Below are positions 1-51,141 of a stretch of DNA of 64,000 nt, piece after piece; position 1 is the stretch's first letter; every line of letters begins with the position of its first letter. The stretch is from Tubulanus polymorphus (Eukaryota; Animalia; Nemertea), in assembly GCF_964204645.1 (NCBI RefSeq), contig NC_134032.1, positions 7,118,275-7,182,274 on the forward strand, in the 5' to 3' direction. A program made the position numbers and the translations under genes. Below the pieces are notes generated by a model that was not told the origin of the DNA, did not search any database, and saw nothing but the letters and a program-made list of their open reading frames with translations.

Positions 1-13
1 CAAAGCTGACCTA

Positions 14-5338: not shown

Positions 5339-5358
5339 TGAATTAATTAAATAAATAA

Positions 5359-7438: not shown

Positions 7439-7458
7439 TTATTTATTTAATTAATTCA

Positions 7459-7656: not shown

Positions 7657-7781
7657 TTATTTAAGAGAAAAATTAAACAGTTAATAAAATATTTGCTAGT
7701 TTTTAATTAAATATTTTATAATCATTTTAAAAATATTAAACTTTTAAATGATTAAATCAAATAACAATTAAATTTACAGCC

Positions 7782-8510: not shown

Positions 8511-8566
8511 ATTCTATTAGATATTTAAATCATTTAACTCAATTCAATAATTATAATGTAGAATTG

Positions 8567-10691: not shown

Positions 10692-10772
10692 CTACAAAAC
10701 GTGGAAAGAAGAGGCACTTAGTGCAGGAATCGGTCTCATAATGACATGAGGATTATTTAGCCCGAACAATAT

Positions 10773-12293: not shown

Positions 12294-12885
12294 TTTCCTA
12301 GCAAGCTTATCGTCTGTGGGTAGCTCCTGCTTAAGTAATAATTAATTATATTGCTCAGCTCATTATCGTTGCGTTGTTTTTCTTTTAATTTTCGTTTTGT
12401 CCCGTCGCCTCCACACGGCGGAGGTTCCACATTCAAATTACTACAATATGTGTCCTCATTTATTATAAATTCATCAGTAAAATATGTAAAATCGGGAGGG
12501 TGATCAAGTCCTACCGAAGTTACGTTTAATACGTCCATTTGAGGAACAAATTCATTTGCAAATGGTGACAAGGCTGTTTGGTCTCGTCGTTCATATCCAG
12601 AGACCATAATTTCTCTATTCCCCCCGCCCTCTGTTGTATATACGTCATTTTCTTCGCTCGAGTTGCTTAAAATTATTTGGTCTGTTAATACGAGACTTTT
12701 GTCACATGGACATCTCTGGTCCACTTTTGCTGCAGGTACATTACATTCTACTTTATTTTCATTTAATATCTCCCCATCCCCTTCCCCTCCCCAAATGCGT
12801 ACGTAATAAATGAATTAACCCTATAGCCAATCTACTTAAGACCACTTATGCACTTTTGGGTTTAAGCCATGACTGCAACAGGCTC

Positions 12886-20120: not shown

Positions 20121-20125
20121 AGGAG

Positions 20126-23976: not shown

Positions 23977-23992
23977 TATTACGTTAATAAAA

Positions 23993-24420
23993 TGTGAAGA
24001 TCAACCGATACGTAAGATTCATGTTCCGTGGCAAAAAATCATTAGGACATTTATTTTCAGACGTCACAAACACGGATGCACGATTAACTACAAACAAATA
24101 GAAAATTACCATAAATAAATTTGTATAATTATTGACATAAGAGAATATCTTTATATTAGCAATTTACCGTAATATTTGGCTGTCTAAACCTTCAATTTAA
24201 ATCTTCACCCTTTACTCAAATACAGCAACACAACCTTACAGGTCTAAATCCATATAACAAGTGACCAAAAATCTCAATATCTGATATATCTATTGAACTA
24301 TACAAATTATCAGGCTATAGAATTACCATGACCAGAAACCATGAAATAACAACCATAGAAATATATCAAATACAGTATACAGAATACAATAAAGCAGAAT
24401 TTCAGGAATTATTCCTTACA
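23993..24420 (-). repeat. BEL 5' LTR
   Basis: 428-bp direct repeat of 17607-18034. Confidence 0.96.
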
Positions 24421-29250: not shown

Positions 29251-29905
29251 CAGGAGTTGAAGAATTGCATAAAATTCTTTTCACAAGGTGAATCAGAGAA
29301 AAAGTGACTCCAGCCGTAAATCAAGTTTGACCCATATATACCTATAAGGACATTGTTAAACATTAGAAAACAATTAGGTTTTTCTTCATTTAACAAAAAT
29401 GAAACTGCGCATCTGTGCTGGTCATTTTAACACCTTTATCAGGTGAACTAATCCAGTTATGGCAACCCGGCTTCCTTTCAAACGTCAAGTCGAAATTTGT
29501 GCTAATGGCAAATTGCATCGAATTTTACAGGTTGTTACACAACAGCTCGTTACAGAGCTGAGGGAAAAGCTTGCCATCACTGAGAGAAGGCTTAAAGATA
29601 TTGAGATAAGGTTTGCGTACTTGATAACAATGAAAATCATCTAAAACATGTATAAACAGTAAAACCCGTGATCACACGGGGACGATTTTGGCCGTGCTAA
29701 AATTTGACTCGGGCCTGCTCCGACGTTTTTGGTCGGATAAAATTTGTCCCGGGTCTAAAGCTGGGCGCACACCTTTGCGATCATCGCATGCGATGATACG
29801 ATGACACGATGAAAATCGCATCATCCCCGCATACCTTTGCGATTTTTATGAGGGCCTCGAGTTGGATTCAATCACGTGACTGATAAAAGCCATACGACTG
29901 AAAAA

Positions 29906-32900: not shown

Positions 32901-35900
32901 TAGCACTAAGGGGGCGTTTCGTTTCAAAAGGTCGTTTAGTCGATGTTGGTGTTGATTCTGGCACTTCATTGAGTGAAACTGAGTAATTAGGAAAGTAGGC
33001 TTTCAGGCCAGAGGGCGAGAGGGCGAGACACCACTCATCACCACAAGTAATTTTTTTTTCCTACTCATCACCACAAGTAATTTTTTTTCCTAATAAATGG
33101 GAGATAGAAAAGCATTCTTAGCAACAATAAATAACAGAATAAAACCAGCAAAAAAACAATTTGAAATAAAAAAGTTAGTTTATGTTACAAAAGAAATTGA
33201 ACATAAAATATTGAAATTAGAAAAGATAAAAACTAAATATGGAGAGAAAGTATCAGCTAATTTAAGCTACTGTAATGTTAGTACATCACGAGAATTTAAA
33301 GTGTTTTTACCTGATAAATGGGTTTCATTGAGTACGGAGGAATTGAAAGATTTAGTAGGATTTAAAATAATATATCATGGGAAAAATGAAGACGGTCATC
33401 ATGATTTAGAAATTGTTGATTAAATTTTTAAAAAAATAAATTAATAAAAATAATGAATATCTAGAATCCGAAATGACTTATCTGGACAATTTAATTGCTC
33501 CGCATAGATGGTGCCATAAACAGCACCAACACAGTGATAGACAAAAGTAGTGAGATATTCAATTAATATTCAATTAATTAAAAAAATTATTTTTTTTGCT
33601 TTTTTTCTAAAATATTAATCCATTTTTTTTATTATTAATTTTGGAATTTCAGAAGTATTTTCATTTTTGATAGCAGTTGGTTCAGAATTACTAATATCAT
33701 GAATTTTATTTGATTTCTTATACCAATTACACCCAATCAAAATGAATACAATTACAAATCCAACTGTAAAATATAAATATTTATTAAATATTCTACTATC
33801 AGAAGGAGTAGAAATAACAATATTTTCACCATTTTTATTAACATTTTTATTACTTATTTTTTCTTTTACAGCTTTTTTATATTCTTGTGATTTAATTCCT
33901 AATTGTCGAGACCATTCAATTTGTTTCTGAGTTCTCGGTTTTTTCTTCACTTCTTTCACCTCGCTCATTTATTATAGAAATATTTTTACTTTCAATATTT
34001 GAAAATGTTATAACTCCAGTTGATAATAATGTCATAAATCCACCTAATTGAAATGATAAATATCCAATCCATTTATTTAATTCGGTCATAACTAAATAAT
34101 CATTTTTTAAATCGGAATATAATCTATTTTCATCTTCAATTGGTAGTATATAATTACATAATTTACTATAACCTTTTACTACATTTTCTGATATCGCGTC
34201 ATTAATTCTAGCTGTTCTCGCGGCTTCATAAATCTTAAATAATCTAATAATTTCATCTGATTTCATTGCGTCTAATTCATTATAAGTTAAATTTTTACTA
34301 ACAAAATTTTTACATTTTCCAGATGCTATTAATATTTCTAATTGATGTTTACAATAAAGATAATATTCATAATTATTATTTGTTGTAACATTATTTAAAG
34401 CACCATCATCTGGAATTAATTTTGTTTCTGTTATTCCTAAATCATCTAAAGTTTTTTCAATTGGAACATCACCATTTTTAGATTTTATTTTCTTTTCACC
34501 TCCCATTTATATAACAAAAAAATTAATTGTGTGATGTTGCAACTAGAATTTAACTAGAATGTAACTAGAATTCAACTAGATTAACAAGCTAGTTGAAATA
34601 TTGTTGTTTTTATTTATTTCTTGTTAAATCTAGTTGATTTTTGTTTCAACTACTAACAACTAGAATTCAACTAGAATGTAACTAGAATTAAAATAGATTA
34701 ACAAGCTAGTTAAAATATTGTTAAATCTATTTGATTTTTGTTACAACTACCAATAACTAGAATTCAACTAGATTAACAAACTAATTGAATTTAAATAAAT
34801 TCATATTTAAATGGGTGTTGTAATCTAAATAGTAATTTTGATCTTTTAATATTTTTCAACTCATCCATATATTCATTATGTAAATCATGTGGAATAATAT
34901 CATTTTCCTCAAGTGCATTTTTCATCGATTTTCTATCTTTATTGTAGAATAAAACTAGAAATCTAATGTTTTCTCTAAAGTCTTTAACAATTGAATTATA
35001 TTTTTGATTTAAAACCCAAGTTGTTATCCCAAAATGTCTCCCAGAGAAAGCTAAATAGCATAACTCACTTTCTCTAACTTTTGAATCATGTAGATTAGCA
35101 CAATCATCTATAATGAATAATGTATTTGATCCTTTATAAATATCAATTGCTATTTTTATACAATTATCTAAATTTTCTTTTACTGTTTTAGGATCTAATA
35201 TAATAAATTTATTATTCCTAGTGATATTTTTATCATAAGTTTGATTAAATTCATATGTTGGACAAAATAATACTATATTATCAAAATAGTTTTCATAAAC
35301 AGTTTCTAATAAATGTAATATAAAATAAGTTTTTCCACAATTTGTTACACCAGAAATTAACATATTATGAGGCTCAAATATGAATAATTCCTTATTCATT
35401 TATATATTTTTAATTTTACTTGATAATATCCATTCATTAAATTTATCTGGCCATCCAACCCATTTTACTAAAGAATATTTTTTTCTTTTAATAGTTTTTG
35501 TTTTTAATACTTTTTCAATTTTATATTCTTGTTCTAGATTTTCAGTAGTTAAACTTAATTCTTCTTCGTAAAAGTAGCCATCAACTTCTTCACCATCTAA
35601 ATCTTCTAATTTATAGACATATGGTTTTGTTGTTATTACCTTTTTTATTTTATATATTTCTCTAGTAAAATTTCGATCGTATCCTTTATCAAATATCTTT
35701 TTATACTTAGAAATTCTAACATTTTGACCAACTTTAAATTTAGGTTCACCAAAATCATCTATAAGAAATGCTCCATATAAATTATTCCAAACAATTTCAG
35801 CATTTTCAGGTTTTCTAGCATCAATAGGTTTCATTCCAATAGAAGAATGATAAGAATTATTATATCCTTCTATCAATTTTGGTAAAACATCAATCCATTT

Positions 35901-38900
35901 AAAAGTATTATTTGCTGTAAAATATTTCCACATTCTTGTTCTTAATGTTCTATTAAATCGTTCAACAACTGCTGCTTTTTTATCTGATTTTGTTGAAAAA
36001 TATTTAATATTATGATTATCTAAGAGTTCATGAACAAGTGAATTATCAAACTCTTTTCCATCATCAAATTGTATTTTTTCTGGTTTTAGTTTATCATCCG
36101 AAAGAAATTTTCTTAAAACATGTGATGTTTGTGCAGCATCTTTTCTATAAAGTGGGAAACTCCATACATAACGACTAAAAATATCAATTATATTCAATAA
36201 CCACCAATAATCATCATTATCTTTCTTAACATTTTTCATATCAATTAAATCTCCTTGCCACTGTTGATCTACATAACTTACCATAGTTTTACGAGTTTCA
36301 TATTTTCTAACAATTTTTTTATGTGTTGTATATGTTGGTTGTTCTAACATAAATTCATTTATATCTTTATATTTAACTAAATTTTGTGGGATTATCTTAT
36401 CTAATTTATCTTGTTTTACTTGACGCCATATATGTTTGGTAGAAGAATAAGCAACCGAACTCTCAGGGTTGTAATATAAATTTCTTAAATATTGTTCTTT
36501 AGTATTAGGAGATTTTTTACCACCCATTTATATACGCTTAATTTTAACTTTATATTTCTAATATTGAATACTATCTAATTGTGAATTTACAATATTTAAT
36601 TGCGCATCAGATATAATATAAATGTGCATTTTAAAATTTTTGATTCCTTTATTCTTTTTCATGAATAATTGTATTCCATCTTTTGTATTTTGTAGTTTTT
36701 TTCCAGAACCATGTAATGAATTATCCTCTGTTGTTCTAAAATCTAACCATAATGCATATTTATTACCGGTATAATAATCAATTTGATTAATGTTACAATT
36801 TTCAAATGATTTCACTTTTTCATTCATAAAATGTTTTCTAATTTCTGGCCATTGATCTATCATTCTCATTCCTTGACAAAATATTTTATTCGCTATACCT
36901 TCGATAGTTATTTCTACTTTTGTTATTTCAGGATTATAATAATTATCAACATTTATTGCACCATTAGAATATGTTGCAATAGTAAAAAATATTAATATAC
37001 CTTTAATAGATCTTCTAGGAAAGTTAATATTCTCATTAATTATTTCATCATTTGCATTAATAGTTACAGTTTTAAATTTATCAATATAATCATATAATAA
37101 TGAAAATCCTTGATTGTATTGAGTTTGAATTGTGCTAGCAATATTTTCATTAGTTACTGTGTTATATTCTAAACATATATTTGATAATTTATAACCCATA
37201 TCTTTAACAACGCTAGATAATACAATTTCATTTACAGGAGCAAATGTTATCTCAAATATAATATCTTCTTGAATTGCATATTTATATAAAGGTGCATTAT
37301 TATTTATCAATTCAAAGTCTAATGGAATTTTATATTTGCTTCCATAAATCTTTTTAATCAAATTATCTGTGGCACGAGTTACTACTGCATTATTGGCTTC
37401 AGATCTTAATTTATTATGGTTTTCTGATTGGATGCCTTGAAATATCATATTATTTCTATTTTCTTTAGTTAACCATAAATCTTTATAATGCATAAATAAA
37501 TTATAATCATCTAATGAGAAAACTGTTTCCGGACCAATCTTTATAGTTAATTTTTTAATCAAATATCTTCCAACATTATCAACAACATAATTGTTATCAT
37601 GGCCAGTTACTTTTATATCGGCTGATAAATAAATACTGTTTGGAACATAAAAAGTATTTTGTGTTAATCGAGGGATTCTAACGTATAAAGTTTCATCGGG
37701 ATTAATATTAGAAGGGTTATGAGTAATTATATGATGTGATCTCTCTGCTTTAATAGCATTAGATATTCTATGATTCTTCGAAGGACTTATATAACTCCCA
37801 CTCATTTATTTAACAAAAAAATTAATTATTTATTTTTTGATATTTTTTGATATCATGGTTTACTTGATATTTTTTGATATCATATTTACTAACCCAAAAA
37901 TAATAGCACTTACAACTGTAATTAAAAATAAAATAATATGTTCAGCAGCAAAGTTAAGAATATTACCTGCAGATTTCAATATAAAACCAACAATTGAAGC
38001 AATAACTCCTGGCAATGCTGCAGCAGATTTTTTAGATAGTTCCCATAAATATTTTGCTAATTTCTTTAAACCATCTTTAACTTTATCTTGTATAGAATTA
38101 TTACCTGGAGGTTTATCTGGTTTATTGGGAGTGGGAGTAGGAGTAGATTTCAAAGCATTTGATATTGCTAAACCAATTGTTGTAAATAACATAGTTACAG
38201 CTGTTACAATTGAAAGAATTGTTATTCCTTCTAATTTAAATAATAATCTTATTCTGTCTTTTAGTGATATTTCAGAATTTGGTTTAATCAACAAATCTTT
38301 AAAAATAACTTTTAATCTATTTATATTATAATCATATGATTTTAATAATAATTTAATTTCTTCTTTTTGTAATTCTATGTTATATTCTAAATCATCAATT
38401 TCTTTTTCTAAATATGCATTTCTTTTTTTAAATTCAATTTCTTCAATAACTTTATTATCTCTATCTAATTTTAGTTGTTCTATTTCTTTATTTTTATTAG
38501 TACTATCTTTTTCTAAAAATCTAATTTTAATATCTCTTTTACTTTTTTCACGCGCAATTTTATCAGCTGATTCTTGCGTACCTTTAATTTCTCTACGTGC
38601 TTGTTCAGGAAATGATTCTAATTCATCATCAGTTAAATCAAGTAATCCTTTTTCTAGTAAATATTGCAGTCGATTTATTCCAGCACTATTCATCTCTTTT
38701 TCTGAATCTCTTAATCTATCAATTTGTTTTTCTAATTGTAATTGTAATTGTAATTGACTTGAATCATTATCAATTGGTTGAGTGTCTCTTCTCGATGTTT
38801 CGGGTGTTGAAGATCTTAATTTATCTAATCGATTTCTATTCTCTTCCATTTCTGGTTCTAAATTATCATAGATTTTCTCAAATAACTCATTAATTCTTTG

Positions 38901-41900
38901 TTTAAATAATTTTTTAAAGTTATCTATTTCTTCTTTTGTTACATCTTCTAGTTTATTATTATAAATAATTTTCTTAATTCTATCTGGTTCTAACTTAAGC
39001 AAAGTTGATTCTGCCAATATTTTGTTTTGATTTTTATAAGAGATATTAATATAATATTCGCCATTTAAATTATCACCATCCAAATAATAATAATATTCAC
39101 CATCTAAATATTTTAAATCTTTTACTAAAAGTCTAGCGCCTCTTTCATTTATATTATAACCAGATTCTTCAAATAAAGGTTTAAAATCATCAATAAATTC
39201 ATTATAATTGTATTCTTTTTCTGTTATTTCTGGTACTTCATTTTCAATACTTATCATTTAACGTGCTTTGTCAATAAATTGGGGTGTAGTTAAATTAGAA
39301 TTATATGTTGTTTCATTACCATCATTAAAACTTGTTTCATCAAAATTAGGTGGTTGTTCATCACTTATACCAGGTTCATCTAAAGGATCCAATGGAATAT
39401 TTTCTACATTCATTTATATAATAAAAAAATTAAAATTTAAAATATAATATTCCTCCAATTACAATTCCTATACAAGTTATAGCTAATTTAGTATTTTCAT
39501 GTGATTTATTATCATTATCAGTTTTAATTATATCATGTTGAATTTTATCAGTTTTTATATTTTCTGATGTATTGTAATCTTTTATTTTGGAATCATTATT
39601 TAATTTAATATTCTTAGTTTTAGTTTCTGTTGATTGAATATGTTTTTTATTTTTTTCACCTTCCATTAATTTTGGAGCAGTAATAATCTTTTTATTTATA
39701 TCATTTAATCCAAATGAATTATTTATTGTTGCAGTTTTAATTAGATTATTATAACCAATTATATTTCCCATCTTTAATACTAAATCATTAGAAATAATTA
39801 ATAGATTAGGGCCTATACAATAATTAAGTCTTACATGAGATTTATCTAAATAATTTTGATATCTTATAATGTTTTCTGGAATCGATCTATTTTTATCATT
39901 ATGAATTGAATCTTCAAATAAAACTTTAAATTGTTTTTGTGTATCGAATGATGTATTCAAATTTCCAATTATTGGGGATCTTGTTTCAACTTGCGCACCT
40001 AAAATACAAATCAAATAAGTTCTAATAGATTGATTTATTCTTTCTATACCTGATTTAGTAAAACCTTCACTATTTTCTAAAATAAAATAAACCCAACCAT
40101 TATTGTTTTCTTGTTTTAAATTATCATAAAATTTTGGTAATTTATTGAAATTTAATGTTTCTAAATCTTTTGTTTCTATTTTACCATAACCTAATTTTTT
40201 ATTATAGATATTATAAAAACTATTAGATGGTATAGGAAGTGCACAATATTCTGCAATCTTTCTAGGGCAAGGAAGTGATCTTATTGTTCCAATTTTTATT
40301 CTAAAATCAGAATTATTTATATCTATATTAAATTCATTGCAAATTTTATAAAACTTAGATAAATTAATATTATTATCCAATTCTTTAAAATATCTAGATC
40401 CTGGTAAAGCGCACTCTAATTCATTTAATATTATTCTGATTTGAAAGTATGTATGAAATCTAAATAAACTTTGAATTAATTTATATTTAGAATTATTCAA
40501 ATGATCATTCCAACTAATTCCACATCCTGTTGTTGCACAATAAACAGCAAAATTTAATTGGTTCTGCCAATACTTCATATTAGATTTTAATAACCATTGT
40601 TTTTCATCTTTCAATTTTTTAAAATCAATTAAATATACATGAAATATATTTTCCATCTTTGCATTAAAATTATTAGTTTCAGTAACATAAATATATAAAT
40701 CAATTAATGAATTTAAAACTTCATTTCTATATGTAATATCTTTATCAAAATCTATTGCTGGAATATTATATTTAATTGATTTATTATATTGGAAAGCTTT
40801 TGGAAACCCCATTTATATAACTAAAAAATTAATAATTAACTAATTCTTTTAATAATTTATCTTGTTCTTCAACTGTTATATGACCATTTAAACTTATTAT
40901 ATAATCTAGTGTATTCTTTAATTTATTAATTTCTTTTATATTAGTTTTAATTTTTTCTTTATTACTTTTTATATTTAATTTTGAACTTATACCAGTTAAA
41001 ACGCTTGAACTTAATCCTAATACGCCAATTGATATAGCTAAAGGTGTTAATGGACTGAATATTGCTAGAAATGTTATTACAGAACTAATTGTAACCGAAC
41101 CACTTATAATCAAATAATATATAATTTTACTTTTTAAATATCTTTTCTTTTTTATCTTTAGGTCACTTTCAAATTCTAATATTTGTTTTTCTAAATATGT
41201 TTTTAATTTAGTTTTATTTATATTATGAGGAATAATATCAATACTATCAACTTTATCTTCCATTTATTTAGAAAAAAAATTACTAATTAGTAAACTTATA
41301 AGCAACAAATATAACAATAACTGTTCCACCTAAAATCCATATTATTTCATATTTCTGTTGTTCTTTACTTGGGGTATAATAATCTGATAATTTAGGTTTG
41401 TATAGATGTAATTTTTCTTTATTTGTTACTGCGTTATATAAACTCATTGCATCATCAACTGATTGAAAATCTCTATGTGAAATCTTCTGATCATATAATT
41501 CTTTGTTAATATAATCCATAGTTTTGTCGTTTTTCTCTGTATTCTTCTGCTGCTTTATTATATTTCTCTAATGCTAAATTATGTCTTCTTTGTTCTCCTA
41601 ATGAACTATTTTTATCAATATGTTTAAATAAATAACCACCACCTGTAAATGCTAAAGCGTTAACAATTGCCGATCCTATAATAGTTATAATTGCAGAAGC
41701 CATTTATTTAGCAAAAAAATTATGTATTTATATGGGAGGAATATATTTTTGTTTTTCCAAATAATCAATTGTTAAATTAGATAAAGTAACTGCTAATGTT
41801 AATTTTAGAATATCATTGATATCAAATCTATCAACATTAACACTTCCCATTTTGAATACTTTTTTTAATACCATTGAATAACCAACAGTTCCAACTGATA

Positions 41901-44900
41901 GTAAGGCGCCATTATATAATCCAGTTATTATCCACTTATTATCACTCATTTATTAATCAAAAAAATTACTATCATCAAAATATTTAGTTAACTTAGTGAT
42001 GATTAATTCAACATTTATTTTATTACTAGTTTCATTTGTATATATTTCAATTATTATTTTTTTGATATCATCGATGATAAAATCTTCATCTAATTCATAA
42101 AATCTTAAAGATTCTCTAATTAAATTAGTAATCTTTTCTACATTAAAAGTTTCTTTATCTATTGTTGTTTCATACTCAAATGTTGTTTCATTAGAAAATG
42201 CAATATTTTTGATGTGTAATTACATCATTCATATTAAATTTCATTTCTTTCTCACGTTTAAAATCAAAACCAAAACATATACTCGGTCCAACAGTTATAT
42301 TCATTTATATAGGTGAAAAATTACTCTTTACATCTTATAACTAATTCATAAATTACAGGAAAGTTATTCAAATCAATTAAGTATCCATTATGATTTCTTA
42401 TTTCTAATTTAAAATTATTAAATTGAGGAATACAAGGTTTGAAATCACATTCTGTTAAATTATAATTTATTTGCGTTCCAAATTCTTTAACATTCTTTAA
42501 TGGTAAAATGTTTAGTAAACCAGAATTACAAGTTATATCTTTAGTTGCTTCGAATGTTTTTGTAGGATCGATTAAATTACAATAAATATAAAAATGTGTA
42601 AAAGGCATTAAGTTTGATTTACCTTCTGCGTATGCTGTAACAATATCAGGGGTAATTCCTAACAGTTTACCTAAAGGTTTTCTTACTGTAAATTTAAATT
42701 GTTCGTCTAACCTAATCTTTATTTTATTAGAACTAGCACTTTTTAAAATTCTAATATTAAATCCAGAATCACTTCCTAATTTAGCTCGAGCTTTTCTATT
42801 AATTTCTTGTGCTAATGTATTTAAATTATATAATCCTGGTTTTAAATATATAAAAAACCATTTATTCCTTTTTTTATAAAAGATTGAAAAAATTAAATGT
42901 TCAAGACTTTTATCCGTTACATTGTAAAAAGAATTACATAAACTAATATTTACTAATTTTAAATCAAGGCAATTCTTAAATTCTCTATCTAATTGTATTA
43001 TTAAATTATGAGATTTATAATTTGTAAGCCTTCTAGAATCTACAAATATTCTGTATTCTTTTAATTCTACCATTATTTATAACATAAAAAAATTACCGCT
43101 CATCACTAAAAATTAATTTTAATAAAATTTTTCCTTAATAAATGGATGAGAAGATAGCATGCGAAATTTGTGGTGAACTTATCAGAAAAAGTAATATGGC
43201 TCGACATATGAAAAAACATGATGAAAATTATAAACCCCCTAAAATAAACTGTCCAAAATGTAATAAATTATTCTCAAGAAATTATGTTAAAAAACATTCA
43301 GAGAAGTGTAGAATTAATGGCGCAACGGCTAATGTTGATAGTAAATCTGCCGAAGTTGAACCTGAAGTTATTTGGAAAAGACCTTTCTTATTCTATGATA
43401 AGGATAATATAAAAGATCATTTCTGTGAGCCTTGTCGAATAAAATATAACCCTGAAAATATAGAAGATTGGGAGAATCATCAATTTCGTAAAGCACATAT
43501 AGATAAAATTTCTAATAAATTTGAAACTGAATTCAATGAAAGAAAAAATAATTTATTAGAAAAAATAAAATATGAGAAAACGTTACCAGATAACGAAGAA
43601 ACAGTTGAAAAGTTAGAAAAACAATATAATGAATTAACAAGAAAAACATATTATTGTAAATATTGTAAATTGATTATTACAACAAGTAATTCAAATCTAC
43701 ATAATAGAACAATAAAACATAAAGAAAACGTAAGAAAATACCAAGAGCTTAATGAAGATCTATTACCAGTAAATTATAAACAAAAATGCCCACAATGTAT
43801 TTATGCGACCTTAAGACAAGAAGGTGCTGTGTTATTTTGTGTTGAATGTGGATGGCAAAAGAATTTATGGGGTGAAGAAAAAACTAGAGATTTTCTCATA
43901 GAACCAAAATTAAATTATCTAGATGAAATTTTTAAAATATTTTCTATAGAAGATCATACACCAGAATATATGCAATGGCTTGAAAAAATGAAAATAATAG
44001 AAAATAAAAATGGTGAAATAACTAAAAAAGATATTATAAAAACAATTATTCCACCAACATTTAACACAAAACAAAAGAAAATGTATTTATATTTATTATT
44101 TAACGATTATTATGAAAAACCTAAATTAACAGAAGAAGATATGGAAAATATAAAAAAAATATTTAAACAAATATTAATGTATCATTTGGAAAATAGAATA
44201 ACAGATTCAATAAATTATGAATTCTTTTTGAATAAGATTGTAAATTATTTAAACCTAGATATTATAATTCCATTTGATGAATTAACAAACAAAAAGAAAC
44301 AAAGAGAGCGAGATGAAATGTGGAACAAGATAGAACTTTATTTAAATGAGAAAAATGGAATTGAAGAAGAACCTGAACAATTTTATGAAAATGAAGAAGC
44401 TAATAGTGATTTCGAGTTTGATGATATTGATTTTATGTTTTAATGGCCATAAGGTAATGTTTTTATACCATCATCTAAAATATGCCTTTTATCATCAAAT
44501 GGATTTAAACTAGTTTTTTCAATTTCATTTATATACATTTCATGATTTTCTGATCTTAAACAATTCATTTTGTGTTTCATTACAATTGATTTATATAAAC
44601 ACTTTATATAATCTTGAAATTCTATATGTTTATCAACCACATGTTTTGTTATTCCTTTTAACTTTTTAGCTTCATGATCTTTAGTTTTATATGAATACAT
44701 TTTACTTCTTATCCCAACAAATTCAATCATTTCATCACCTCCTAATTCATCTTTAAATTTACCAGGAATCTTTTTATTATCATTGCTAAATAGTTCATGA
44801 TCTTTAGGATAATTGCTAAAATCAAAATGATGTTTTAATGTTTTTAAGTCTTTTGTTATGTCATTTGTCTTGATTTTTAGTATGTAGGCATCCGTATTGA

Positions 44901-47900
44901 CCGCTATTAATGGAAATCCACAGTTAAATGTACCATCTTCAGTTGATAAATCATAAACATAATCTGTTGGGTTATATATTTCAAATAAATCTTTAACTTC
45001 TTCTGTTAACTCATTTTCTACATGGCTTAAATTAAAGCAATTTGGTTTAGATTTAATCAATCCAATATTCATATTAAATCCTAATGAACAACATAATATA
45101 TTCAATCCCGATATAGCAACTTTTCCTTTTTGAGCTAAAGATATTGTTTTGCGGTTTTTGAAACTTTTTGAACCATCTGCAGCATAGAATCCAATGAAGA
45201 ACCATTTTCTTAAATTATTTTTTGCATTTAATACATAATCTGGAAAAAAAAAATCTAATGCAACCAAATTGAAATGAAATATAATTTTCAGATGTTTTAG
45301 CTAATAGTTTAAAATCATATTTTCTTACATTTGCTTCATTCATAGCATTATATTCTTCTATTTCTTGATTAATTGCACCCAATTTTCCCGATAATTGTTT
45401 TATAAATAGATGGGTATCATATCCTGATAAATTATGAAATAATATTGGTACGAAATTTACTTTTATAGCTTGTAAATTGCAATCTTCATGAGCAGCTCCA
45501 CGATATTTTGAATTTAAATGATCATGATCTCTAACTCTTTTATCAAATGAATAAAAACGTTTTTCACAATAACAACAATGAGTTGTATAATTAAAATCAA
45601 TTTCATCTTCTTTTGTCATAACTATTCTTTTATTTTTGTTTAATAATTTTGTAAAATCACTTTCTAATTCAATCATTTTATCACAAAAATCATTAACTAC
45701 ATTTTCACCTCTAAAAGAAATATATTGACTTTCATATAATTCAGGATAATTTGATTTGATGTAAATTCCATAAGCAGCAGCTCTTTGATGAACTTTTTTA
45801 ATTGTATTTATAATTGGTGGGTCTTGTATTGTGTCTTCATTTAATTCATTTCCTTTATCCATTGATTTTAATAATTGTTTTTTGTTATATATTTCTTTTC
45901 TATCTTGATTAGTTAATTCTTTATTCAACGATTCAAAATCCCCATAAATTACAAATGGAACAATATTTTTAAATTTATGATTAGTAAATTTCAATTTATA
46001 ATCTTTTTCTGTTGGCATTATTAATTTGCAAAAATCTTTATTATCACATAATTCTTTATGTTTTAATAATGTATTCTCTGTCATAAATTTAGATAAACAT
46101 TTTCTACATAGATAAATTTTATTATGATGATCACTTTCTGTTCTAAAGAATAAATCAATTTGTTTTAACCACATATAATGTTCATTTTCATCTTTTTTGT
46201 AATATAACAAATCTATAGCATTTTCATCATCATAATATTCTGTTAAATATAAAGCTTCCAATGTATAATCTTTAATATTTTCACCTTTTGTCTTTGGTAA
46301 TTGCATTAATTCGAATACATTTATTTTTAAATTATTAATTTTTTCTATTTTGGGTATCATTTTTATAGTTACTGGATATTGATCAATTTTATATAATGTT
46401 TCATATTTCCGGTAATCTGTTATTCTATAAACATGTTCTTCTGTTGGATGTAAGCAACTAATAATTGACCATAGAAAACATTTATTATCTTCATTTTGAA
46501 TATTTATTACTGCTTTTGTTATAAATGGTAATTTGATATAACTTGATGCTTTCATATCTTTTTCTGTTATAAAGTTTGAATCATTTTTAAACATTTTATT
46601 ACTTTTTGATGTTTTATTTCTTTTTGTATTATAAACATTTAAATCTAAATATATAATTTCATTCAATGTTAAGCCAGAACCCTCAAAATATCTTTCTTCA
46701 ATATGACGTTTAAATTCATTTAATATTTTTTCTAACTTCTCTTTTATTTGCGTTTTTGAAATTATTTCTTCAGAGTGTGTTTGAATATTATAATCCATTT
46801 TTTCTTCTGACTTTATAAAACATACTTTCCCAGAGATACTAATTTTTGGATATTCAACATCTGTTATCAAATCTAGTATTTTTTCTATTATTTCATTAAA
46901 TTTACTATAATCTTCTATTGTTATACCTTTAAAAAATCTAAATATAATAGCTGCAGGACCAATTTTACTATGTAATGTTTCTAAAATTTCAATTGTATCT
47001 TTTATTTCTAGTGAATCAATATAATTTCTAACATTTTCCATGTAAGGTTTATTTGAAATGGATTTTGTTTTTGAAGTTGATTCTTTTACTTGTTGAGGTT
47101 TATTATCAAAATATTCTAATCCTAAAACATTTTATTTAAATTTTTATAATGTTTTTGTGATTCGAGATGTCTATTATAATTCCTTTTTACTATAAATTCG
47201 TTACAAACTTCACATTTTATTTCATCCACATTCATATTTTCTAATCGTTCTTTTCTTTCATTAGAATTTTCTGGAGTTTCAAAATCTATTACATTTTTTA
47301 TATGATTTGCAGTTTTTTCATGTCGTGTTTTATGAGATGTATCGATGTATTTTTTCAATATTGGCAATAATATTGATTTTTATTGACATTATTGTTTTCT
47401 GGCTGGTGTTCATTCTCCCCCATTTATAAGGAAAAAAAATTACTTGTGGTGATGAGTAGGAAAAAAAAAATTACTTGTGGTGATGAGTGGTGTCTCGCCC
47501 TCTCGCCCTCTGGCCTGAAAGCCTACTTTCCTAATTACTAAACTGTAGCCTCTACTCCCCGGGTACTAGTAGCAGGGGTATTAGGATGAGTGAAATCAGT
47601 TTCATCCGCAACATCATCTACATCGCCGTCGTCACTATTGTCATTCATCTCTCTGTCTGCAACATCCATCTCTTGATTTCTTGAATCCTGTTAATAGAAA
47701 AAATAATTTTGTTTTTCAGAGGCCTAATACTAGAGAAGAATGGACTGAGATTGCGAAGAAATTTCAAGATAAATGGAATTATCCATTCTGTGTTGGAGCT
47801 CTTGACGGAAAGCACATAAGTATAAGGCAGCCTGACAACAGTGGATCTTCATACTATAACTACAAACACTTTTTCAGCGTAATCTTATTAGCACTAGTGG

Positions 47901-48523
47901 ATGCGGATTACAGATTTATCTATGTTGATGTTGGGGCTGCAGGACGATGTGGTGATGCTGGGGTGTTTAATCAGTCAAGTTTGAAGGCGGCAATGGACAC
48001 AAACAACATAAATTTTCCAGAGCCTGGCTGTTTCCCGAGCGGTGAAGAATGTCACCATCACATTATCGGTGACGATGCGTTCCCCCTACGAAAGGATCTG
48101 ATGAAACCGTTTCCACATCGAAACTTGATGGATGATATCAAAATTTTCAACTACCGATTATCACGTGCACGACGTGTAGTTGAGAATGCGTTCGGCATTC
48201 TAGCCAACAGATTTAGGGTATTTCTGACTACCATTGCCGTGGAACCTGATTGTGTAGATTTCATAATACTAGCTGCCTGCGTTCTACATAACTTTTTAAT
48301 CGACGAAGAGTCAACAAATTATGCGTCTTCTAATTTTGTTGACCGCGAGGACAACGCCCACAATTTAGTTCAGGGTAACTGGCGATTGGATACTGGACTT
48401 CAGCCCCTGGCAACAACTCACAGTCGAAATGCCCGCCAGGAAGCTAAAGACCAAAGAGAAGCTATAAAAACCTATCTTAATTCTGCTGGAGCAGTACCAT
48501 GGCAAAATGATATGATTCGCTAG
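29906..48523 (+). CDS. Harbinger (HARBI1-like) transposase, 3 exons: 29906-30239, 32265-32380, 47720-48523 (417 aa, open)
   Basis: GT-AG junctions with compatible phases. Motifs LTLRFLATG, ASFRDL, GALDGKH, IIGDDAFP, RVVENAFG and LHNF. Confidence 0.88.
31776..31936. mobile_element. Short MITE with 16-bp TIR CAGTGTTTTCAATAAG
   Basis: Perfect TIRs with ACATG on both sides. Confidence 0.6.
32982..33101 (+). repeat. Polinton left TIR
   Basis: Inverted copy of 47419-47539. Contains two ~30-bp direct repeats (ACTCATCACCACAAGTAAT-Tn-CCT) and ends in an inward-facing TAAATGGG start. Confidence 0.95.
33097..33423 (+). CDS. 108-aa Polinton protein (possible small beta/OB-fold nucleic-acid binder)
   Basis: Starts inside the TIR at TAAATG. 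Pattern KTKYGEKV...KVFLP...IIYHG. The function is a guess. Confidence 0.6.
   Translation: MGDRKAFLATINNRIKPAKKQFEIKKLVYVTKEIEHKILKLEKIKTKYGEKVSANLSYCNVSTSREFKVFLPDKWVSLSTEELKDLVGFKIIYHGKNEDGHHDLEIVD
33615..33968 (-). CDS. 117-aa single-TM protein
   Basis: YLYFTVGFVIVFILIGC TM segment; TAAATG start. Confidence 0.65.
   Translation of the reverse strand: MSEVKEVKKKPRTQKQIEWSRQLGIKSQEYKKAVKEKISNKNVNKNGENIVISTPSDSRIFNKYLYFTVGFVIVFILIGCNWYKKSNKIHDISNSEPTAIKNENTSEIPKLIIKKMD
33916..34506 (-). CDS. 196-aa hypothetical protein with C-terminal hydrophobic segment
   Basis: WIGYLSFQLGGFMTLLSTGVITF; T-tract plus TAAATG start. Confidence 0.7.
   Translation of the reverse strand: MGGEKKIKSKNGDVPIEKTLDDLGITETKLIPDDGALNNVTTNNNYEYYLYCKHQLEILIASGKCKNFVSKNLTYNELDAMKSDEIIRLFKIYEAARTARINDAISENVVKGYSKLCNYILPIEDENRLYSDLKNDYLVMTELNKWIGYLSFQLGGFMTLLSTGVITFSNIESKNISIINERGERSEEKTENSETN
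34530..34790. repeat. Non-coding repeat region of the Polinton (AACTAGAAT units, duplicated ~120-bp block)
   Basis: About 10-bp CAACTAGAAT-like units and a duplicated TAGATTAACAAGCTAGTT block. Confidence 0.75.
34791..35399 (-). CDS. DNA-packaging ATPase (A32/FtsK-like)
   Basis: Walker A GVTNCGKT, Walker B LFIIDD, and the SGRHFGIT...Q motif. Confidence 0.92.
   Translation of the reverse strand: MNKELFIFEPHNMLISGVTNCGKTYFILHLLETVYENYFDNIVLFCPTYEFNQTYDKNITRNNKFIILDPKTVKENLDNCIKIAIDIYKGSNTLFIIDDCANLHDSKVRESELCYLAFSGRHFGITTWVLNQKYNSIVKDFRENIRFLVLFYNKDRKSMKNALEENDIIPHDLHNEYMDELKNIKRSKLLFRLQHPFKYEFI
35400..36527 (-). CDS. Polinton retroviral-like (c-)integrase with C-terminal chromodomain
   Basis: WQGDLIDM, IDIFSRY, QFDDGKEF and AVVERFNRT motifs; chromodomain YKIEKVLK...LVKWVGWPDKFNEWI. 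Confidence 0.95.
   Translation of the reverse strand: MGGKKSPNTKEQYLRNLYYNPESSVAYSSTKHIWRQVKQDKLDKIIPQNLVKYKDINEFMLEQPTYTTHKKIVRKYETRKTMVSYVDQQWQGDLIDMKNVKKDNDDYWWLLNIIDIFSRYVWSFPLYRKDAAQTSHVLRKFLSDDKLKPEKIQFDDGKEFDNSLVHELLDNHNIKYFSTKSDKKAAVVERFNRTLRTRMWKYFTANNTFKWIDVLPKLIEGYNNSYHSSIGMKPIDARKPENAEIVWNNLYGAFLIDDFGEPKFKVGQNVRISKYKKIFDKGYDRNFTREIYKIKKVITTKPYVYKLEDLDGEEVDGYFYEEELSLTTENLEQEYKIEKVLKTKTIKRKKYSLVKWVGWPDKFNEWILSSKIKNI
36558..37805 (-). CDS. Probable major capsid protein (double jelly-roll)
   Basis: 415 aa, beta-rich pattern (NPSNINPDETLYVRIP, YKIPLDFE, ICLEYNTV, ALWLDFRT), and its size and position next to the ATPase and integrase. The fold is inferred. Confidence 0.7.
   Translation of the reverse strand: MSGSYISPSKNHRISNAIKAERSHHIITHNPSNINPDETLYVRIPRLTQNTFYVPNSIYLSADIKVTGHDNNYVVDNVGRYLIKKLTIKIGPETVFSLDDYNLFMHYKDLWLTKENRNNMIFQGIQSENHNKLRSEANNAVVTRATDNLIKKIYGSKYKIPLDFELINNNAPLYKYAIQEDIIFEITFAPVNEIVLSSVVKDMGYKLSNICLEYNTVTNENIASTIQTQYNQGFSLLYDYIDKFKTVTINANDEIINENINFPRRSIKGILIFFTIATYSNGAINVDNYYNPEITKVEITIEGIANKIFCQGMRMIDQWPEIRKHFMNEKVKSFENCNINQIDYYTGNKYALWLDFRTTEDNSLHGSGKKLQNTKDGIQLFMKKNKGIKNFKMHIYIISDAQLNIVNSQLDSIQY
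37860..39257 (-). CDS. Coiled-coil protein with multiple C-terminal hydrophobic/TM segments
   Basis: Long heptad region followed by GITILSIVTAVTMLFTTIGLAI, ALPGVIASIVGFIL and IILFLITVVSAIIFGLV. An in-frame 51-aa ORF (39413-39258) precedes it. Confidence 0.75.
   Translation of the reverse strand: MISIENEVPEITEKEYNYNEFIDDFKPLFEESGYNINERGARLLVKDLKYLDGEYYYYLDGDNLNGEYYINISYKNQNKILAESTLLKLEPDRIKKIIYNNKLEDVTKEEIDNFKKLFKQRINELFEKIYDNLEPEMEENRNRLDKLRSSTPETSRRDTQPIDNDSSQLQLQLQLEKQIDRLRDSEKEMNSAGINRLQYLLEKGLLDLTDDELESFPEQARREIKGTQESADKIAREKSKRDIKIRFLEKDSTNKNKEIEQLKLDRDNKVIEEIEFKKRNAYLEKEIDDLEYNIELQKEEIKLLLKSYDYNINRLKVIFKDLLIKPNSEISLKDRIRLLFKLEGITILSIVTAVTMLFTTIGLAISNALKSTPTPTPNKPDKPPGNNSIQDKVKDGLKKLAKYLWELSKKSAAALPGVIASIVGFILKSAGNILNFAAEHIILFLITVVSAIIFGLVNMISKNIK
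39430..40812 (-). CDS. 460-aa hypothetical protein with C-terminal TM anchor
   Basis: WQNQLNFAVYCATTGCG region and C-terminal LAITCIGIVIGGILYF; TAAATG start. Confidence 0.75.
   Translation of the reverse strand: MGFPKAFQYNKSIKYNIPAIDFDKDITYRNEVLNSLIDLYIYVTETNNFNAKMENIFHVYLIDFKKLKDEKQWLLKSNMKYWQNQLNFAVYCATTGCGISWNDHLNNSKYKLIQSLFRFHTYFQIRIILNELECALPGSRYFKELDNNINLSKFYKICNEFNIDINNSDFRIKIGTIRSLPCPRKIAEYCALPIPSNSFYNIYNKKLGYGKIETKDLETLNFNKLPKFYDNLKQENNNGWVYFILENSEGFTKSGIERINQSIRTYLICILGAQVETRSPIIGNLNTSFDTQKQFKVLFEDSIHNDKNRSIPENIIRYQNYLDKSHVRLNYCIGPNLLIISNDLVLKMGNIIGYNNLIKTATINNSFGLNDINKKIITAPKLMEGEKNKKHIQSTETKTKNIKLNNDSKIKDYNTSENIKTDKIQHDIIKTDNDNKSHENTKLAITCIGIVIGGILYFKF
40829..41263 (-). CDS. 144-aa two-TM protein
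   Basis: Two adjacent hydrophobic helices flanked by Lys-rich coiled segments; TAAATG start. Confidence 0.7.
   Translation of the reverse strand: MEDKVDSIDIIPHNINKTKLKTYLEKQILEFESDLKIKKKRYLKSKIIYYLIISGSVTISSVITFLAIFSPLTPLAISIGVLGLSSSVLTGISSKLNIKSNKEKIKTNIKEINKLKNTLDYIISLNGHITVEEQDKLLKELVNY
41283..41519 (-). CDS. 78-aa C-terminal TM protein
   Basis: IIWILGGTVIVIFVAY. It overlaps the upstream ORF and lacks TAAATG, so it may be the frameshifted continuation of 41506-41703. Confidence 0.55.
   Translation of the reverse strand: MDYINKELYDQKISHRDFQSVDDAMSLYNAVTNKEKLHLYKPKLSDYYTPSKEQQKYEIIWILGGTVIVIFVAYKFTN
41506..41703 (-). CDS. 65-aa protein with N-terminal hydrophobic segment
   Basis: MASAIITIIGSAIVNALAFTGGGYLF; TAAATG start. 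Confidence 0.6.
   Translation of the reverse strand: MASAIITIIGSAIVNALAFTGGGYLFKHIDKNSSLGEQRRHNLALEKYNKAAEEYREKRQNYGLY
41728..41949 (-). CDS. 73-aa hydrophobic protein
   Basis: Two moderately hydrophobic segments; T-tract plus TAAATG start. Confidence 0.6.
   Translation of the reverse strand: MSDNKWIITGLYNGALLSVGTVGYSMVLKKVFKMGSVNVDRFDINDILKLTLAVTLSNLTIDYLEKQKYIPPI
41955..42304 (-). pseudogene. Small frameshifted Polinton gene
   Basis: TAAATG start at 42304 (MNITVGPSICFG...) stops after 37 codons; another frame continues with acidic sequence toward ~41955. Confidence 0.4.
42321..43073 (-). CDS. Probable minor capsid (penton, single jelly-roll) protein
   Basis: Pattern LVNISLCNSFYNV...LKPGLYNL...FYIYCNLID...LEIRNHNGYLIDLNN...YEL is typical of Polinton/virophage-type mCPs. 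Confidence 0.72.
   Translation of the reverse strand: MVELKEYRIFVDSRRLTNYKSHNLIIQLDREFKNCLDLKLVNISLCNSFYNVTDKSLEHLIFSIFYKKRNKWFFIYLKPGLYNLNTLAQEINRKARAKLGSDSGFNIRILKSASSNKIKIRLDEQFKFTVRKPLGKLLGITPDIVTAYAEGKSNLMPFTHFYIYCNLIDPTKTFEATKDITCNSGLLNILPLKNVKEFGTQINYNLTECDFKPCIPQFNNFKLEIRNHNGYLIDLNNFPVIYELVIRCKE
43142..44443 (+). CDS. Multi-zinc-finger protein with C-terminal VLTF3-like (poxvirus late transcription factor) domain
   Basis: Several C2H2-like fingers, a Zn ribbon CPQC...FCVECG, and SINYEFFLNKI...KKKQRERDEMWNKI resembling the VLTF3 C-terminal motif. Confidence 0.62.
   Translation: MDEKIACEICGELIRKSNMARHMKKHDENYKPPKINCPKCNKLFSRNYVKKHSEKCRINGATANVDSKSAEVEPEVIWKRPFLFYDKDNIKDHFCEPCRIKYNPENIEDWENHQFRKAHIDKISNKFETEFNERKNNLLEKIKYEKTLPDNEETVEKLEKQYNELTRKTYYCKYCKLIITTSNSNLHNRTIKHKENVRKYQELNEDLLPVNYKQKCPQCIYATLRQEGAVLFCVECGWQKNLWGEEKTRDFLIEPKLNYLDEIFKIFSIEDHTPEYMQWLEKMKIIENKNGEITKKDIIKTIIPPTFNTKQKKMYLYLLFNDYYEKPKLTEEDMENIKKIFKQILMYHLENRITDSINYEFFLNKIVNYLNLDIIIPFDELTNKKKQRERDEMWNKIELYLNEKNGIEEEPEQFYENEEANSDFEFDDIDFMF
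44440..47423 (-). pseudogene. Protein-primed family B DNA polymerase, internally deleted and frameshifted, with an intein remnant
   Basis: ATG at 47423 in the TIR and N-terminal zinc fingers. Motifs DNKCFLWS, ExoI VIYGDFES, RDHDH, ExoII FHNLSGYD; C-terminal GKFKDE, IRSKMYS, KKLKGI, DDKR, TLPYGH. ExoIII and Pol motifs A and B are absent. Confidence 0.9.
44896..45243 (-). other. C-terminal half of a LAGLIDADG-type intein inserted in pPolB motif C
   Basis: Block E PDYVLNA...FFIGFYAADG, block H QKGKVAISGLNILCCSLG, blocks F/G YVYDLSTEDGTFNCGFPLIAVN, followed by extein +1 T of TDA. Confidence 0.82.
47419..47539 (-). repeat. Polinton right TIR
   Basis: Inverted copy of 32982-33101. Confidence 0.95.
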
Positions 48524-51141
48524 TAAAAAAGTAGCATAGCTTATCTTAAATGTATTTAGAAATATCAATATAATCAAACCTGTACATATGCAATATATAT
48601 GCTATTTTCTAACAGTTATTAATCTCATATTTCAAACAATTAATCATTAATCGTACGGTATTATGCATAACGAGATAATATGTACCGATACATAAAATAA
48701 ACTGAAATTATCTTACTTGTTTTGTTCGCAATACTTACATCAAGGCTGGACAATGTTCCCCGCACAGTAATGAAAGGCTTTAAGAACTGCATCTTGTCAG
48801 CTACCCAAACATCCTTTTTTGAGGGGGTTTTTCTTCTGCTGCCTGACGGCGGTGCATTCTGAGTTTTCGTGTACTGAGTTCTCAGGCTAGTCATTCTAGT
48901 CTTGATTTTATTTACTGAAAATGAATAGCATAGTTTATTTGCAGATACTTCTAAATGTCTAAAAGTGGTTAGGCCTCATTCTTGAGTCATTTTAATTCCA
49001 TACAAATTCCGGGTTTTCCCACTTATAGTTCTTCCTTGAAATTTGCCTCAACGATTATACAACGAGCAATCTGATTGGTGCCGCCAGTTTTCGTTCGGAA
49101 AGCTGCGCATGTACCTGCGCACCCGGTCTACTGATGCAGGGGTTCGTGCGTGGCTGAGTGTAGCGATGCCATCAGGTTCGAGTCCCTGCAGAGGGAGGAT
49201 GTTTAAACCGGACCCTCTAGCTAGATACTAACCCAGGGATTTTGCTCTGCATTTTATAAATTCAACCGTCGGCGTCAGTCAATAAACGTACATTGAATTG
49301 AATTTGTATCGGTTTGGTTAAAAAAGAATTACCTGGTATGCCTATGGCAGTAGATATGGAGTCGAGGGCAGCTACTCTGGCTTCGCGCTTACTGTATTCT
49401 GGTGAGGTATGATCATAAAGGCAAGGATAAGCCTCCCAAAAAACAATCAAATCCAGCTCGCGTTGCTCTGTCCACGCTTCAGCCATTTTGAATTTTCGTT
49501 ACCCCCTACTTCAAACCGTGCGGAACAAAATTCAAATTCAAATTCAAATGGCCGACCGGTTCCGCACGGCTCCGGTCGGTTAGGAGCCGCCATTTTGAGC
49601 ATTATGTGACTGCTTCATCCTTAATTCTGATTGGCTACTAAAATTTTTCGTTCAGAACATCGGCAGCGTAGCCCGCAGACCTTTACGATTTTTATCGCAC
49701 GGAAAAATCGCATGCGAAAATATCAAACACGTTTGGTTTGTTGCGATGAAGCGATGATGCGATGAAATCGGCTCCAGCGGCCATAGCACACCTTTACGAT
49801 GATGCGATAAAACGATGCGATGAAGCGATCATACGATCAATCGCAAAGGTGTGCGCCGGGCTTTACTAGCGCGCGCCCATTTGTTACCCCTGTGAACGGT
49901 TATTCTTGGCCTAATTTGGCACCCGTGTGATATAATTGTACTTAATATAATTTTTTTTCAAATTTTGTTTAAAGATTGAAAAACAGTTCTCCACTAATAT
50001 GATACCGTACAAGGCTTAGAAGAAGAATTGTTGGAAGTAAAGGTCAGTGTCACCAAATCTTACTACAAATTTGCCAAACTACCGGGTACAAAAAGTATCC
50101 CATTTCATAGTCCTGTCCTGACCATGTCCTGATCTGAAATCTATGTATATTTTTGATAGAACTGTAAGGACTAGCGCACACCCTAGCGAATTTTCATCTG
50201 AGAATCATATCTTCATGGTTTTGTCGGCTCATCACCAAAGTGTGCGCTTTCAATATTGGCCGACGACTTTTTTGTACGATATCTTAAACATCGCGTGGGT
50301 GTGCGCCAGTAATCAGCAGTGGACTAACGTCGACATAGGCCTAACTAACGGCTTCATTGGTTTTTTTATTTATAGAAGTCTAATAAGGAACAAGAGCCCC
50401 AAGGGGCACAATGGCCAGCCTGTCAGATTTGCTTTTTATAAATGATGTAATCTGTGGGTTATATTTATCAATATACACTCCCTGCTCAATATCATTTACA
50501 TAGTAAAATCGTGTGTTAGCACAGACAGCAGGAACGAATGTAATATAGAAATACTAAGTTATTGTATTGTTCAACGCCCCCTGGTGGCCATAACAAAAAA
50601 CCAATGAGCTTGAAACTCACCTCGATCATAGAACATGTCATGAGCTACAACTTTCCAATTGATTATAGTAGTAAAATATGCTTAATTATCAATTATGATG
50701 TGGAAAAACTTTTTTTCCACCTACGAATGAGTACTGATGACCCCAAGATGGCCGCCAAGTGCGTCGTAATTGCCTGGTCAAAAATACCCTCTCGGATATA
50801 AAAGATCCCTTTCCAAAGAATACCCATTACAAATTGCAATGAAACATGGCGCACCATTAGAAAGCTACAGTACTCAGAATTCAGGCCAAAATGGACATTT
50901 TTGGGAACAAAAAAGGTCACAGTACGGCCATCTTGAGTCCGATCGACTCAATTTTTCTCATGCCGATGGGCCCTCGGGGGATACAAATATATACGAATGA
51001 TCAAGGTTATTGATAAAAGTGTCTTCAAAATTTCCCTCGAAAACTTCAAAAATGTGTAAAAAGTGCTGATTTTGGAGAACAACAATGGCTGCCAGTCGGC
51101 CATCTTGAATCTGACAGGGCCAGTTTTTGGCCTGAAGATGT

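Follow-up and report, generated by a model that had tools for sequence, protein, structure and literature searches.

An intein remnant at motif C of a Polinton DNA polymerase, with complete and empty relatives

Of 136 inteins from eukaryotic viruses, 67 are housed in DNA polymerases, more than in any other kind of protein (Green, Novikova, and Belfort 2018, PMC5784728; articles are cited throughout for the parts of them that were covered). In that compilation, the listed viral cases all belong to nucleocytoplasmic large DNA viruses (NCLDV) or are unclassified, and the nuclear cases are in fungi, protists, and algae, with none in animal chromosomes. A described example is the intein of mimivirus PolB, which bears an endonuclease and occupies the same site as the archaeal pol-c allele (YGD|TDS, position III, pol-c; the bar marks a junction; Ogata, Raoult, and Claverie 2005, PMC549080). 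The subject of this work is a 64,000-nucleotide stretch of DNA (the window) that holds an integrated Polinton/Maverick element. On the minus strand, the protein-primed DNA polymerase gene of this element contains, as read from its sequence, the last third of a LAGLIDADG intein (45243-44896), located at the motif C site (D|TD). The mimivirus intein is alike in its site, its endonuclease, and its length, at 351 aa versus 333–354 aa for the complete protein-primed relatives. The host gene here is unlike that of mimivirus in being the protein-primed polymerase of an integrating Polinton, and the kinship described below was tested on other RNA-primed PolBs and on giant-virus loci from metagenome-assembled genomes (MAGs), not on the mimivirus sequence.

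Three other groups of described systems are relevant. First, nuclear scaffolds from Klebsormidium, Tetrabaena, and a labyrinthulomycete carry viral-type DNA polymerases with inteins (Gallot-Lavallee et al. 2023, PMC10710043). There, as in the window, integration of a viral polymerase gene has brought an intein into the nucleus of a eukaryote, but the hosts are algae and a protist, and the words “animal,” “metazoa,” and “Polinton” do not occur in the parts of the main text covered. Second, HNH and VSR nuclease inserts have been described in Polinton protein-primed PolBs of animals (Jeong et al. 2023, PMC10748475), and a single sentence in Krupovic et al. (2024, PMC11071308) suggests that the HNH-type inserts are the outcome of intein invasions. 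No splicing domain is reported for these inserts in the parts of the two articles covered, where “intein” and “LAGLIDADG” occur 0 times (Jeong et al.) and “Hint” 0 times (Krupovic et al.). By contrast, the complete relatives described here carry a full Hint and LAGLIDADG intein that interrupts the catalytic motif itself. Third, PI-SceI, PI-PfuI, PI-PkoII, and TliVMA are alike in fold and domain layout, but share only 12–18% identity and reside in archaeal or yeast housekeeping hosts.

In the literature covered, no intein with a splicing domain is described from a Polinton or from an animal chromosome. Inteins are not mentioned in the part covered of a study of adintoviruses (Starrett et al. 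2021), and the covered parts of PMC12220804, PMC5718144, PMC2777158, PMC3671162, and PMC13768754 hold nothing further on Polinton inteins; supplements, subscription journals, Repbase, Dfam, and InBase were outside the search, and earlier annotation may exist. The intein is of a known kind, at a known site; what seems to be new is the class of host gene and the chromosomal setting, and the carrier is a viral passenger gene rather than a gene of the host. The host range of the Iridoviridae includes animals. This family carries 14 inteins (PMC5784728), so inteins in an animal-infecting virus family are already known.

The intein remnant and its relatives

In the minus-strand translation of 45300-44443, the remnant starts at 45243 with PDYVL and continues through FFIGFYAADG and a helix to YVYDLSTEDGTFNCGFPLIAVN|TDAYILK, after which the polymerase C-terminus follows. 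The terminal Asn is encoded by 44898-44896 and Thr+1 by 44895-44893, and the penultimate residue is Val. A profile built from 127 inteins of proteins other than those of Polintons finds the frame of the remnant at E=5.6e-27 among 556 ORFs of the window, with the runner-up at 0.24; because these 127 inteins were first collected with a profile that contained the remnant, the test, though strong, lacks full independence. Identity of the remnant to P0003 is 72% over 116 aa, and its identity to the full-length intein of P0004 is 60%. On its own, it reaches only E=0.018 with LAGLIDADG_3 in a Pfam scan, under the cut-off; the same scan gives no match to Intein_splicing, and an NCBIfam scan of the remnant gives no match.

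Complete versions of the intein, and polymerases that lack it, are found among related proteins. A search with the window frame found 57 longer proteins, 6 with a complete intein and 51 without one. A search with an alignment of the inteins, in which the best 120 of 1115 matches were examined, adds at least five protein-primed carriers: P0242, P0243 (136 members), P0247 (121 members), P0249, and the truncated P0251. With P0003 included, protein-primed carriers make up at least 12 clusters at 90% identity, 10 of which have a complete intein. Intein_splicing is matched by the 10 carriers scanned (6 + 4), with E values from 9e-5 to 8e-11; the curated cut-off is passed by 3 of them.

Class 1 inteins are recognized by an N-terminal Ser or Cys nucleophile (block A) and by TxxH in block B. 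All 10 complete relatives follow the pattern D|SVxxD[TS]P...N|TDS, with Ser1 as the N-terminal nucleophile, and all have the block B TxDH (as VTEDHS or VTKDHS) and both LAGLIDADG motifs, despite pairwise identities of 43%–77%. The N|T splice junction is present in the window and in every complete relative. The penultimate His, which is usual but not obligatory in class 1 inteins, is replaced by Val in the window; it is present in 7 of the 10 complete relatives, the others having Lys (2) or Ser (1). Among 222 related inteins, the penultimate residue is Lys in 127, His in 78, Ser in 10, and Val in 0. Since Lys outnumbers His, a residue other than His is normal for this family, and the Val of the window may reflect decay. 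A structural model of the P0004 intein (mean pLDDT 65, with low confidence for the final 12 residues) matches TliVMA, PI-PkoII, PI-PfuI, and PI-SceI (Foldseek E 3e-12 to 1e-6). The model also matches the mini-inteins 5o9j, 4o1s, and 9hth as well as full inteins, pointing to a predicted Hint fold. The top PDB sequence match of the intein profile is PI-PkoII (E=3.8e-10).

The four closest intein-free polymerases, P0005–P0008, read IMYFD-TDSYILK at the corresponding position. The junction in the window is therefore motif C, with the insertion between the first Asp and the Thr, as at the pol-c site (PMC549080). The window copy itself is a dead, broken remnant. Full-length relatives align to 47131-45252 and then again from 45243, in different frames. 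Through the frame-shifting deletion, the intein has lost ~238 of its 354 residues (P0004 numbering). The polymerase has lost ~457 residues (P0006 numbering), among them motifs A and B as well as the initial Asp of motif C. Blocks A and B of the intein are gone and only the second LAGLIDADG motif is left, so this copy cannot splice in cis.

An earlier note, made from the letters of the window, had anticipated much of this anatomy. It had read the LAGLIDADG block-E motif, the helix, the Asn end, Thr+1, and the penultimate Val at 44896-45243, and had called the segment an intein at the pol-c site of a protein-primed Polinton polymerase. The translation, the profile match, the complete relatives, the empty junctions, and the alignment of related polymerases bear out these readings in turn. 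The full-length and intein-free alleles that it had proposed to look for both exist among related polymerases, and its author, too, knew of no described case. Of the profiles that it had suggested, Intein_splicing matches complete relatives but not the remnant. Its statement that the N-terminal half of the intein is deleted is too modest: the loss is larger, reaches into the polymerase, and leaves the two sides in different frames.

Two further carriers deserve mention. One of the 6 loci from a metagenome scan, L001, encodes an intein-bearing polymerase of the Polinton type (10-4198); a frameshift lies inside the endonuclease, and the end of the intein is in another frame. A scan of IMG/VR with the window's own protein gave 0 loci. 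The NCBI record of P0011, a Polinton polymerase that also has this intein, belongs to a bacterial MAG of a clam symbiont. Host DNA was probably binned into this MAG, and P0011 would then be a second animal carrier.

Splicing, homing, and inheritance

How might such an intein persist in a Polinton? A good case can be made that the complete inteins excise themselves by class 1 splicing, restore D-TD, and home into empty Polinton copies, and that their lineage came once from a giant-virus-type polymerase; this combined reading is probable. The class 1 splicing pathway is standard. The polymerase would be translated as a precursor containing the intein. Ser1, aided by the block B TxDH, would undergo an N-O shift, the ester would pass to Thr+1, and the terminal Asn would cyclize. 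Splicing would thereby rejoin the catalytic D-TD motif, and the polymerase would be inactive until then. In another Polinton copy of the same nucleus, an empty motif C site would be cleaved by the two-motif LAGLIDADG domain, and the intein would be copied into the cut allele during repair. Where a Polinton family has many copies, some filled and some empty, targets would be at hand without the need for a giant virus, and gain, decay, and precise loss are proposed as the source of the patchy distribution. The splicing and homing steps are drawn from motif conservation and from general knowledge of inteins.

Raw reads of one sequencing run, X7, were mapped on 44440-46300 only (1934 Mb read; 85% likeness limit). 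This run may come from a related species rather than from the window's own. The intein has a mean depth of 150, against 463 for the C-extein and 347 for the N side. An intein depth of 150 from 1934 Mb means that the intein is multi-copy in any genome above 13 Mb, and the ratio of intein to extein depth (0.32–0.43) is consistent with filled copies occurring alongside empty ones. Along the intein remnant, 107 reads depart from the window at 45245; along the exonuclease side, 255 and 212 reads depart at 45249 and 45251. Since reads depart at both edges of the deletion, there must be many related copies without it. Differences among the X7 copies fall at third codon positions in 6 of 7 cases in the intein (P=0.007) and in 11 of 16 in the C-extein (P=0.004), among 40 of 282 rows, which suggests purifying selection on the intein. 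The listed holder runs include no RNA run and are without bearing on expression.

Phylogenies of the inteins and of the exteins give complementary views of mobility. The inteins of protein-primed polymerases form one clade, with 13 of 13 together among 57 rows (support 100/98, IQ-TREE) and 9 of 9 among 143 rows (99, FastTree). The 57-row tree includes 44 hand-picked viral-type inteins (29 near, 15 far); four near-duplicate cluster members and P0250, in which the pattern was not found, were left out of the intein trees. A single gain would be enough to explain all the Polinton cases found; it may be old, and need not have occurred in any animal. The extein tree comprises 62 polymerases with the intein columns removed, without P0003 (too few columns) and without the five carriers from the intein-alignment search. 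In this tree, 9 carriers stand amid 20 empty rows in one 29-row clade, a distribution that takes at least five changes.

The best sign of a jump is P0249, which has the same intein in a second class of protein-primed polymerase. Its intein (1111-1460) is 46% identical to that of P0004 and groups with the window's intein (99/94). Its exteins are unalignable to the window-type polymerase (best BLAST E 0.07; profile E 2 on the N side and 3e-7 on the C side) and match DNA_pol_B_2 much more strongly. The P0249 polymerase also has a cysteine motif that we take to be VSR-like. Whether the P0249 intein belongs inside the clade or at its base, either position implies transfer between polymerase classes.

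Several considerations weigh against an actively homing intein that was acquired from giant viruses. Splicing, cleavage, and homing are predicted from sequence, and most of the other carriers come from metagenome-type collections. The drop in X7 depth over the intein could partly come from reads below the 85% likeness limit. Among the loose read ends listed, none lies at the 3′ junction of the intein (322 more ends are unlisted), and the codon-position count for the intein rests on 7 rows, from 40 of 282. The branching order of the inteins broadly follows that of the exteins, which inheritance with losses explains as well as homing does. P0249 is a single sequence on a 5.3-kb contig, and an approximately unbiased (AU) test does not reject a position of its intein outside the others (p=0.089). 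In the unrooted intein trees, no group stands firmly as sister to the Polinton clade.

The main alternative is that the intein is real and splices, but no longer homes, having been gained once in an ancestral Polinton, inherited, and lost repeatedly. This is unlikely. It draws on the agreement in coarse order between the intein and extein trees, with all carriers but one in one extein clade, and on the similar identities of intein and C-extein to the window (60% and 59% for P0004; 50% and 48% for P0012). However, an idle endonuclease would be expected to decay, yet both LAGLIDADG motifs are kept in 10 of 10 complete inteins, and P0249 requires at least one jump between polymerase classes.

Origin of the intein and its implications

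Where did the intein come from? An exhaustive HMMER search returned 596 representative proteins (clusters at 50% identity) at E<=1e-30. The best 150 of these include 1 window-type protein-primed polymerase and 1 intein-only fragment, and most of the others have YGD|S...N|TDS junctions. RNA-primed PolB (PF00136) accounts for 15 of the 16 near relatives scanned, and 4 of the 6 IMG/VR loci are labeled as giant-virus MAGs. The intein of the L007 polymerase ends in GFPLIVKN|TDS, near the Polinton ending. A GTDB scan with the intein alignment, which covered prokaryotic genomes, gave 232 pattern matches and 0 relatives. The records of the 10 nearest proteins bear only generic names. The direction of transfer was likely from giant virus to Polinton, as suggested by the far greater diversity on the RNA-primed side.

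A related intein family (P0083–P0098, P0244) occurs twice in single PolBs, with a second site bounded by N|S...N|S, and twice in type II topoisomerase. Its presence at the second PolB site and in topoisomerase II indicates that site switching belongs to its history.

A different history, in which both groups received the intein from Polinton-like elements or from a source not sampled, is improbable. Both intein trees are unrooted and only midpoint-drawn, leaving open the fork between the Polinton clade and the viral clades. On the other hand, the family is far larger in RNA-primed polymerases, as the HMMER counts show, and the second PolB site and topoisomerase II are also represented among those matches.

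The earlier note's broader history holds in part. The kinship to giant-virus-type polymerase inteins is supported by the PolB relatives and the giant-virus MAG loci. The jump from a large virus that it proposed gains from this kinship, with a direction that follows from diversity in an unrooted tree. The co-residence with a giant virus that it deduced need not have occurred in this animal, or in any animal, since one old gain suffices. Its route for inteins into animal chromosomes stands insofar as the intein arrived as the passenger of an integrating element, but not as an intein in an animal's own gene. The comparison of intein and extein phylogenies that it had called for yields one intein clade; the coarse order of the two agrees, so the comparison does not decide between homing and inheritance.

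What are the implications of a homing intein in a Polinton? The full claim would be that living homing inteins reside within Polintons in animal germlines, splice in animal cells, cycle between filled and empty copies, and have jumped from giant viruses to Polintons and then between two polymerase classes, such that the rule of no metazoan inteins is wrong. The chances that this claim holds in full are about even. First, a 2021 review describes metazoan genomes as being without inteins, and takes this as grounds for aiming drugs at inteins (PMC8529194). An intein present in many copies on animal chromosomes, even one carried as the passenger of a Polinton, would be a counter-example to this stated absence. 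Second, it would become testable whether animals are without inteins through lack of exposure or through selective removal. Third, the intein would be genetic evidence that Polintons and giant viruses have been in contact; such a relation has been proposed for protists and is hard to show for animal elements. Fourth, a jump between RNA-primed and protein-primed polymerases would clearly exemplify a switch of homing site between genes that cannot be aligned, an event that Ogata et al. deem implausible by direct homing (PMC549080). Fifth, the complete alleles are cysteine-independent at their junctions (Ser1, Thr+1) and may serve as splicing tools.

The element, its host, and its surroundings

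The element spans 32982-47539 (14,558 bp) and has a GC content of 20%–26%, in flanks of 38%–45% (Table 1). It is an integrated Polinton/Maverick, with terminal inverted repeats that start with AG and a 6-bp target duplication, which we take to be hallmarks of the group. The host is likely to be an animal, as suggested by the Pao and Harbinger elements in the window. Less probable again than a reversed transfer is that the host is not an animal, or that the element is a contaminant or an assembly chimera. No host gene was identified in the window, and the best sequencing run has 52% of words, as such an artifact would allow. Against this, AAACTG is duplicated on both sides of the element, in flanks of quite different composition, raw X7 reads span the intein-extein junction, a Pao element lies in the window, and the flanking Harbinger transposase is closest to clusters that are 99%–100% eukaryotic, with Arthropoda the commonest. 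It is scarcely credible that the segment is just normal polymerase sequence or part of a free-standing nuclease. This reading, favored only by the poor Pfam and NCBIfam results for the remnant, is refuted by 53 intein-free polymerases that run through the site without the segment and by the match to the profile of other inteins.

Table 1. Features of the Polinton element, its polymerase gene, and the intein remnant in the window
Feature	Coordinates	Strand	Evidence or remarks
Target-site duplication AAACTG, left	32976..32981	plus	
Left terminal inverted repeat, 123 nt	32982..33104	plus	Starts AGTA
A32-type packaging ATPase	34791..35399	minus	Pox_A32 E=6.2e-13
Retroviral-type integrase with chromodomain	35400..36527	minus	rve E=1.6e-10, Chromo E=8e-4
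Probable major capsid protein	36558..37805	minus	Capsid_N E=0.012 only
C-extein: Thr+1, TDA of motif C, C-terminal 151 aa of protein-primed DNA polymerase, and stop	44440..44895	minus	74-82% identical to intein-free P0005-P0008
Intein remnant, last 116 aa	44896..45243	minus	Second LAGLIDADG motif (FIGFYAADG), block-H-like helix, C-terminal splicing region ending ...GFPLIAVN
Deletion junction in T run, exonuclease region fused out of frame to intein remnant	45244..45252	minus	Relatives' alignment; read ends
Polymerase N-terminal part to exonuclease region, with endonuclease-VII-like insert; frame stops at 45215	45252..47131	minus	59-61% over ~630 aa to P0006-P0008
Short frame like N-terminal leader of related polymerases, in another frame	47122..47379	minus	tblastn of P0007 and P0008
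Right terminal inverted repeat, 124 nt	47416..47539	minus	97.6% match to left
Target-site duplication AAACTG, right	47540..47545	plus	

The polymerase of the window is broken, and its relative P0004 matches DNA_pol_B_2 at E=5e-17. The insert in the N-terminal part of the window's polymerase has a weak Pfam match to Endonuclease_7. The separate frame of the leader could be due to a second break or an intron. The major capsid protein of Polintons is of the double jelly-roll type; the capsid candidate here has no PDB sequence match and a single-sequence model with a pLDDT of 31. Adintoviruses are characterized by an adenain protease and by an OTU domain on PolB (Starrett et al. 2021). Element ORFs of >140 aa have no Pfam match to a protease or an OTU domain, no profile-profile search having been made, and the element is not filed as an adintovirus. 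A run of T followed by TAAATG stands upstream of numerous ORFs of the Polinton and recurs in its terminal repeats (33094, 34503, 40809, 41260, 41700, 43139, 47420). This is probably a promoter or start motif of the element, and we assume a resemblance to poxvirus late promoters.

The surroundings of the element are rich in other mobile sequences. Harbinger-type pieces flank the Polinton on both sides (29852-30247, 32545-32981, and 47594-49498), with a Harbinger transposase at 47594-48523 (DDE_Tnp_4 E=1.5e-30) and with frames that are presumably MADF/BESS-like; a Harbinger element seems to have been the insertion target of the Polinton. A near-complete Pao retrotransposon lies at 18144-24000 (Peptidase_A17 E=1.5e-28), and the Pao group is described as metazoan (PMC3118150). 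A Gypsy integrase with a chromodomain is located at 10773-12341. Further upstream is an AT-rich giant palindrome (3046-9630), with arms at 3046-4921 and 7781-9630 that are 97% complementary. It holds tandem repeats and mirrored small ORFs (3463-4110, 5359-5661), and has no match to the terminal repeat of the window's Polinton. The palindrome lies between two long minus-strand ORFs, 9568-10752 and 1754-3097, which may be one Gypsy envelope-like gene that the palindrome has split.

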